This document shows, piece by piece, positions 19,610-19,893 of a stretch of DNA of 64,000 nucleotides. This DNA is from Eledone cirrhosa (lineage: Eukaryota). The translations under genes were made by a program, and so were the position numbers. The stretch is taken from contig OZ024751.1 in NCBI GenBank assembly GCA_964016885.1, forward strand, positions 28,520,001-28,584,000, in the 5' to 3' direction. Numbering within the stretch: the stretch's first letter is position 1; every line of letters starts with the position of its first letter. The notes below the pieces were generated by a model. It was not told where the DNA came from. It did not search any database and saw nothing but the letters and a program-made list of their open reading frames with translations.

Positions 19610-19893
19610 AACGAAGGAAATGTGGTAAGGAACCAGGTGGACCATAACGCACCAAAGTACTCAATACTTAGGGTAATAGAGTGGGTAATAGAAACGAGTA
19701 GGACCCCGACGGCTGAGCTCAAGCCGTTTCGACGGGGCTAATTCTGGACTGAATTAGCCAGAATTAGCCGTCGAAACGCCTTGAACTCAGCCGTCGGAGT
19801 CCTACTCGTTTCTATTACCCACTCTATTACCCTAAGTATTGAGTACTTTGGTGCGTTATGGTCCACCTGGTTCCTTACCACATTTCCTTCGTT
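19610..19893. mobile_element. Family A fully symmetric 284-bp fold-back element
   Basis: Arms of about 135 bp are reverse complements with about 3 substitutions. (TA)n on both sides. Confidence 0.9.

Follow-up and report, generated by a model that had tools for sequence, protein, structure and literature searches.

Head-to-head stubs of a Penelope-like element in Eledone cirrhosa: probable joining of two separate reverse transcription products within a hammerhead ribozyme

A near-perfect palindrome of 282 bp lies at 19611..19892 of a 64,000-nt stretch of Eledone cirrhosa DNA (the window, as the whole stretch is called here), and the question it raises is how its two arms came to mirror each other. 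It sits inside a (TA)n target microsatellite (19516..19940), where a target duplication is not readable, and has a short templated duplication in its centre. A sequence-only reading of the window had proposed that this is one of six copies of a family, here family A, in which each arm was copied from its partner when a cDNA folded back on stem II of half a hammerhead ribozyme. The focal copy is a head-to-head stub in the rare form with a tail on both arms. Its sense arm (19760..19892, plus strand) is made up of the 3' strand of stem II, G12-A14, stem III, the GUC triplet, the 3' strand of stem I and a 78-nt tail, and it matches the end of the full-length copy L237 at 91%. Whole-length, two-tailed matches to the focal copy were found in 5 of its 40 best-scored loci; a two-tailed copy in L268 (~1620-1665) has an axis of four tandem 10-nt repeats, the duplication in the focal copy being smaller.

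Six related pieces are indeed present in the window, but only those at 11 kb, 19.6 kb and 20.2 kb are true palindromes. The copy at 11068..11257 is typical, with the tailed arm on the minus strand and the short arm on the plus strand, and belongs to the same subfamily as L231, an insertion that carries reverse transcriptase (RT) and endonuclease (EN). That at 20186..20366 is also typical, with 14 nt on its tail-less arm that are absent from the tailed arm. A copy of a sibling family at 56717..56860 is partly deleted, with a short arm on the left and on the right an arm lacking the ribozyme half, followed by the tail; at 61609..61749 (plus strand) is a single tailed arm of the same sibling family that has no inverted partner, and at 63657..63765 an inverted tail fragment, a short filler and a short arm follow one another with zero overlap of the arms. 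Directly after the 61.6-kb copy is a small simple-repeat palindrome with unique arms (~61750-61870). A second, unrelated palindrome with 183-bp arms lies at 62576-62960, and is probably another Penelope-like element (PLE) family; a canonical CUGAUGA hammerhead can be seen by eye on its arms, whilst an Rfam scan of this palindrome did not find a hammerhead. Open frames at 22008-23330 (minus), 16866-17606 (minus), 49113-49796 (plus) and 52534-53232 (plus) resemble fragments of LINE reverse transcriptases and an endonuclease.

The family is very abundant, with the inverted core found at 13,924 places in the 3.0-Gb genome and its reversed control at none. When the first 50 consecutive palindromes on contig C1 were read, 49 combined an arm bearing the 78-nt tail with an arm that stops at a nearer site, and none had two tails, so that the second arm, which had been described as varying in length, is in fact nearly fixed. 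The tail consists of element sequence from downstream of the 5' pLTR; in the parent element TAT follows both end sites, which also close full-length copies, and the insertion target is (TA)n. In L032, L040, L044, L053 and L055 (~1500), which are from a set selected by pattern, family A copies lie at nearly one spot of another hammerhead-bearing repeat. In L093 and L241, family A copies adjoin or contain large inverted pairs of a different PLE (another endonuclease, 25% identity).

Tracing the arm upstream identifies the stub as the ribozyme-bearing end of an element of ~3 kb, the long copies of which encode RT and then a GIY-YIG endonuclease and are flanked by the same end in direct or inverted orientation (L126-L145, L231-L245). 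L231, with the subfamily markers of the 11-kb copy, has RT and endonuclease inside its long arm, and LYRDD and YIG motifs occur in a 550-aa frame of L232 and in frames of L237. Profile searches gave little, Pfam returning a single GIY-YIG match at E 0.072 and none for three long frames, and a PDB search returning chance matches only. The protein has RWR, SDKT, CNCPDRSSC (CxCX5C), CNLC..E (CxxC..E) and N..CKH (CxH), and a CCHH is absent. Among its 1334 relatives at E<=1e-20, the 120 best include 114 with CxCX5C and 86 with DKT. The Hydra clade of PLEs is described (PMC8557442, section 11) as having an RWK-like motif, DKT, a CxCX5C linker, CxxC and CxH, no CCHH, and insertion into (TA)n. Because this motif set and the (TA)n target match that section's description, the parent is assigned, on its predicted protein motifs, to the Hydra clade of EN+ Penelope-like elements, the likeness to the published Hydra proteins being judged by eye. 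Features expected of an EN+ PLE are found, namely a single ORF with RT then GIY-YIG, a pLTR in partial tandem or inverted copies and a one-sided tail. An initial assignment to the Neptune clade was abandoned, as its CX2-5CxxC linker and endonuclease CCHH are both missing from L232 and L237.

The same ends close RT-bearing copies, which bears out the earlier view that these palindromes come from a retroelement and are not the terminal inverted repeats of a MITE. Copying of a non-autonomous palindrome or MITE in one piece from a handful of master copies would account for the very high copy number and the fixed outer ends, and the same one-arm mismatch recurring in the 30 top matches at first looked inherited from such a master. 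In an unbiased set, however, none of the 49 tailed arms has that mismatch, and so it was picked out by the query. The ends are asymmetric, the centres vary among the copies of any one subfamily, and the parent is an RT element. A MITE origin is extremely improbable, and is refuted by the continuity of the stubs with the PLE ORF together with the variable centres.

The 3' half of a hammerhead, as had been noted from the letters, is present at 11218-11246 (plus strand; type I), with G12-A14, stem III, the GUC triplet and the 3' strand of stem I, and the canonical CUGANGA half is missing from the window copies. It had been expected that parental copies would have CUGANGA directly before the central hairpin. 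There were 55 matches to such a pattern, and the 30 that were read proved to be flanks, junction filler and decayed arms. The parent core sits instead about 58-60 nt upstream. Ribozyme-complete parents were found at 2,010 places (control 0), so that stubs, counted by exact patterns, are about seven times as common as complete ends (13,924 vs 2,010). In 30 parent cores U3-A8 occurs 23 times, C3-A8 7 times and the canonical C3-G8 not at all; the survey pattern fixed positions 4-6 and 9, copies found through RT show the same core, and at the free position 7 A, C, G and T all occur. The sibling family retains the core, identical in 12 of 19 readable copies. L166, L184, L190 and their kin form a subfamily with C3 and A8, one 7-mer accounting for 6 of the 30 parents, and such a mismatched core may be inactive, yet it was amplified.

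Stem II is completed by the strand just after the core, upstream of the stub, with 3 compensatory pairs between two families (two clades only). A three-helix model pairs 92% of cells in an alignment of those two families, and a three-helix junction is predicted in 3 of 4 parent stretches (z -2.3 to -2.7). Rfam did not find a hammerhead in one intact parent, nor among the 150 matches listed of 367 in the window. On covariation and predicted folding, the parent carries a type I hammerhead with a U3-A8 core. U3-A8 hammerheads are on record for PLEs of Schistosoma (PMC4209133). The central hairpin of the stubs had been taken for stem II; since stem II is a separate, covarying upstream strand, the hairpin is merely the inversion and the palindrome axis lies in loop II. 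A snap-back on stem II would have kept loop II in the centre, which was seen in 0 of 134 palindromes; as only 9 of these have centres longer than 38 nt, this is a weak test.

Whether one arm was copied from the other can be asked of the variants on the arms. The variants had been thought to be shared by both arms and private to each copy; the first part holds for the focal copy, both arms of which carry two rare changes, whilst most of the supposedly private variants are subfamily markers. The 11-kb variant was counted in 6 of the 50 loci read consecutively and in 32 of 245 retrieved loci, the 20.3-kb variant in 1 of the 245 and the 19.7-kb variant in none. L291, which is outside that set, has both rare changes of the focal copy on one arm, a sharing close to what chance could give. 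Of 106 assignable copies, 96 have both arms from one subfamily, where random pairing would give 22% (24 of 130 were unassigned). This concordance is also predicted by fold-back, and to that extent it counts against two separate cDNAs. The arms do not pair by locus as had been predicted, however, and group by subfamily, the partner being the unique best match in 5 of 50 copies. For variants outside the common haplotypes, 121 occurrences were confined to one arm and 9 were shared by both. In 3 of the 106 assignable copies (L198, L291 and L294, two of which came from query-biased searches) the arms are of different subfamilies, with 3-4 diagnostic differences. Ectopic conversion could also produce such chimeric arms.

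If a single cDNA snaps back, whether at stem II or close to its 3' end, and primes itself, the tailed arm must contain all of its partner. Among 49 short copies the tailed arm reached further in 24, the tail-less arm in 18 (in 11 of these by at least 3 nt) and neither in 7; under stricter scoring the figures became 22, 18 and 8 (n=48). The loop plus priming overlap that fold-back demands is possible in 6 of the 49. In the table of long insertions (32 rows, one locus pair duplicated) the longer arm was the tail-less one in 11 and the tailed one in 10, 7 being undecidable and 4 having two like ends; the gap between the arms often exceeds 1 kilobase, the extra sequence on the tail-less arm reaching kilobases. 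Fold-back is thus contradicted by 25 of 49 short copies and by 11 of the 21 resolved long insertions. It would have to explain the asymmetry by later deletion or inversion, and chimeric arms also stand against it. The concordance of the arms, the short snap-back fillers at some centres and the symmetry and shared rare changes of the focal copy speak for it, as does the fact that self-priming has been put forward for PLE palindromes (PMC3846280). As a general explanation it is unlikely. It may apply to rare two-tailed copies such as 19611-19892, which may have been self-copied or later converted. Of the original proposal, the rebuilding of arms at each insertion stands; their copying from the partner is contradicted for most copies.

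The reading that best fits these data, and which is probably right, is that the stubs are 5'-truncated head-to-head insertions of a Hydra-clade PLE, made by two separate reverse transcriptions whose products were end-joined at the axis. At 50 junctions there was an overlap of 1-2 nt in 20, of 0 nt in 12 and of 3 nt or more in 5, with extra bases in 13, and the filler is short and often templated; such overlaps and fillers would fit end-joining. The steps can be sketched by analogy with the PLE of the green anole, Poseidon PAc, for which target-primed reverse transcription has been followed in vitro (Frangieh et al. 2024, PMC11167929). The enzyme would nick both strands of the TA run, one cDNA would be primed at each of two internal start sites, both cDNAs would run to the 5' end of the RNA in loop II, and host end-joining would fuse them with a 0-2 nt overlap or a short templated filler. 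In the passages of that paper bearing on these steps, the anole element likewise has two internal RT start sites that define a tail, an A/T-rich target with both strands nicked and extended, and a predicted dimer. It differs in clade, and those passages do not address head-to-head junctions or a fixed 5' stop.

Twin priming of L1 is a related process, in which target-primed synthesis takes place twice and yields a 5' inversion with a microhomology junction, the two arms being copies of different parts of one RNA. The difference here is that both arms copy the same part, sometimes from different subfamilies.

The arms end at a sharp point. Of 100 arm stops, 38 lie 14-15 nt before the conserved block leading into G12 and 11 lie beyond 15 nt, and the sibling family has the same stop offset. 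Of 30 parents, 28 carry an initiator-like TTAGT or TCAGT at the stop and 25 a TATA-like A/T box at -29 to -31; the A/T box was looked for in the sibling family and is absent. Internal promoters are known in PLE pLTRs (PMC2377424, PMC3846280). The stop point may, somewhat more plausibly than otherwise, be the transcription start and hence the 5' end of the RNA, as these motifs suggest; of all the steps in the model this is the least certain. Seven full-length copies with an upstream direct repeat were read and none begins at the stop point, so that long copies need template jumps or a read-through RNA.

It is quite possible, if less likely, that the template was instead a longer read-through RNA, on which the two cDNAs were halted by a structural or protein-bound block in loop II or at a processing site. 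Folding predicts a small hairpin beside the stop, long copies continue through the site, the A/T box is not conserved, and a G just before the stop, sought as the mark of a cap, is no more frequent than in the control (20 of 70 arms vs 20 of 65). Such a hairpin is however weak, A/U-rich and variable between families, whilst the stop offset and the initiator-like motif are kept. The 26 incidental arms were also either shorter than 26 nt or longer than 150 nt, with none at 26-149 nt, 5 of the 6 long ones being partners in loci chosen for a long arm and thus not independent.

If two separate cDNAs end at a transcription start, a fuller scheme can be offered, tentatively: the ~14,000 stubs would be double 'strong-stop' products of a dimeric enzyme, two cDNAs being made on two RNAs at two cut ends. 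Transcription would start in loop II and the ribozyme of the downstream pLTR would set the RNA 3' end, leaving a terminal redundancy of ~41 nt, like a retroviral R, across which a cDNA would either jump (long arm) or stop (stub). If true, this would explain the tail, the pLTR, the inversion and the role of the ribozyme together. Among the papers listed by literature searches, none ties Penelope to 'strong-stop' together with pLTR, nor to twin priming of this kind.

Much of what the family shows is already in print for other elements, namely the element class, the head-to-head layout, the tail, the (TA)n targeting and the U3-A8 core. The Hydra-clade C-terminal EN+ PLEs of Craig et al. 2021 (PMC8557442), such as Hydra-1_Obim, are alike in RT then GIY-YIG, motifs, lack of CCHH, length of ~3 kb, insertion into (TA)n, an inverted copy truncated at its 5' end and a tail on one side. 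The present family is distinct from Hydra-1_Obim, its ribozyme and protein differing when compared by eye. It has a U3-A8 core and a long loop II where that paper reports canonical cores (as an observation, not as diagnostic; one row of its ribozyme table is covered here), and a tail of 78 nt against 30-40. The Cercyon PLEs of Schistosoma (Cervera and De la Pena 2014, PMC4209133) share the U3-A8 core, long helix II, type I topology and opposite-strand pairs from truncated PLEs; here, by contrast, stem III is a full 4-5 bp and most copies are the 3' half only.

As to how PLEs come to insert head to head, genome structure had led to the proposal of self-priming (PMC3846280), and internal priming on both strands has been shown in vitro (PMC11167929). 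The loci sampled here favour two separate cDNAs over fold-back. The new points, a sharp stop inside the ribozyme and evidence for two templates, are modest, and the family supplies ~14,000 naturally formed junctions at which both arms carry subfamily markers.
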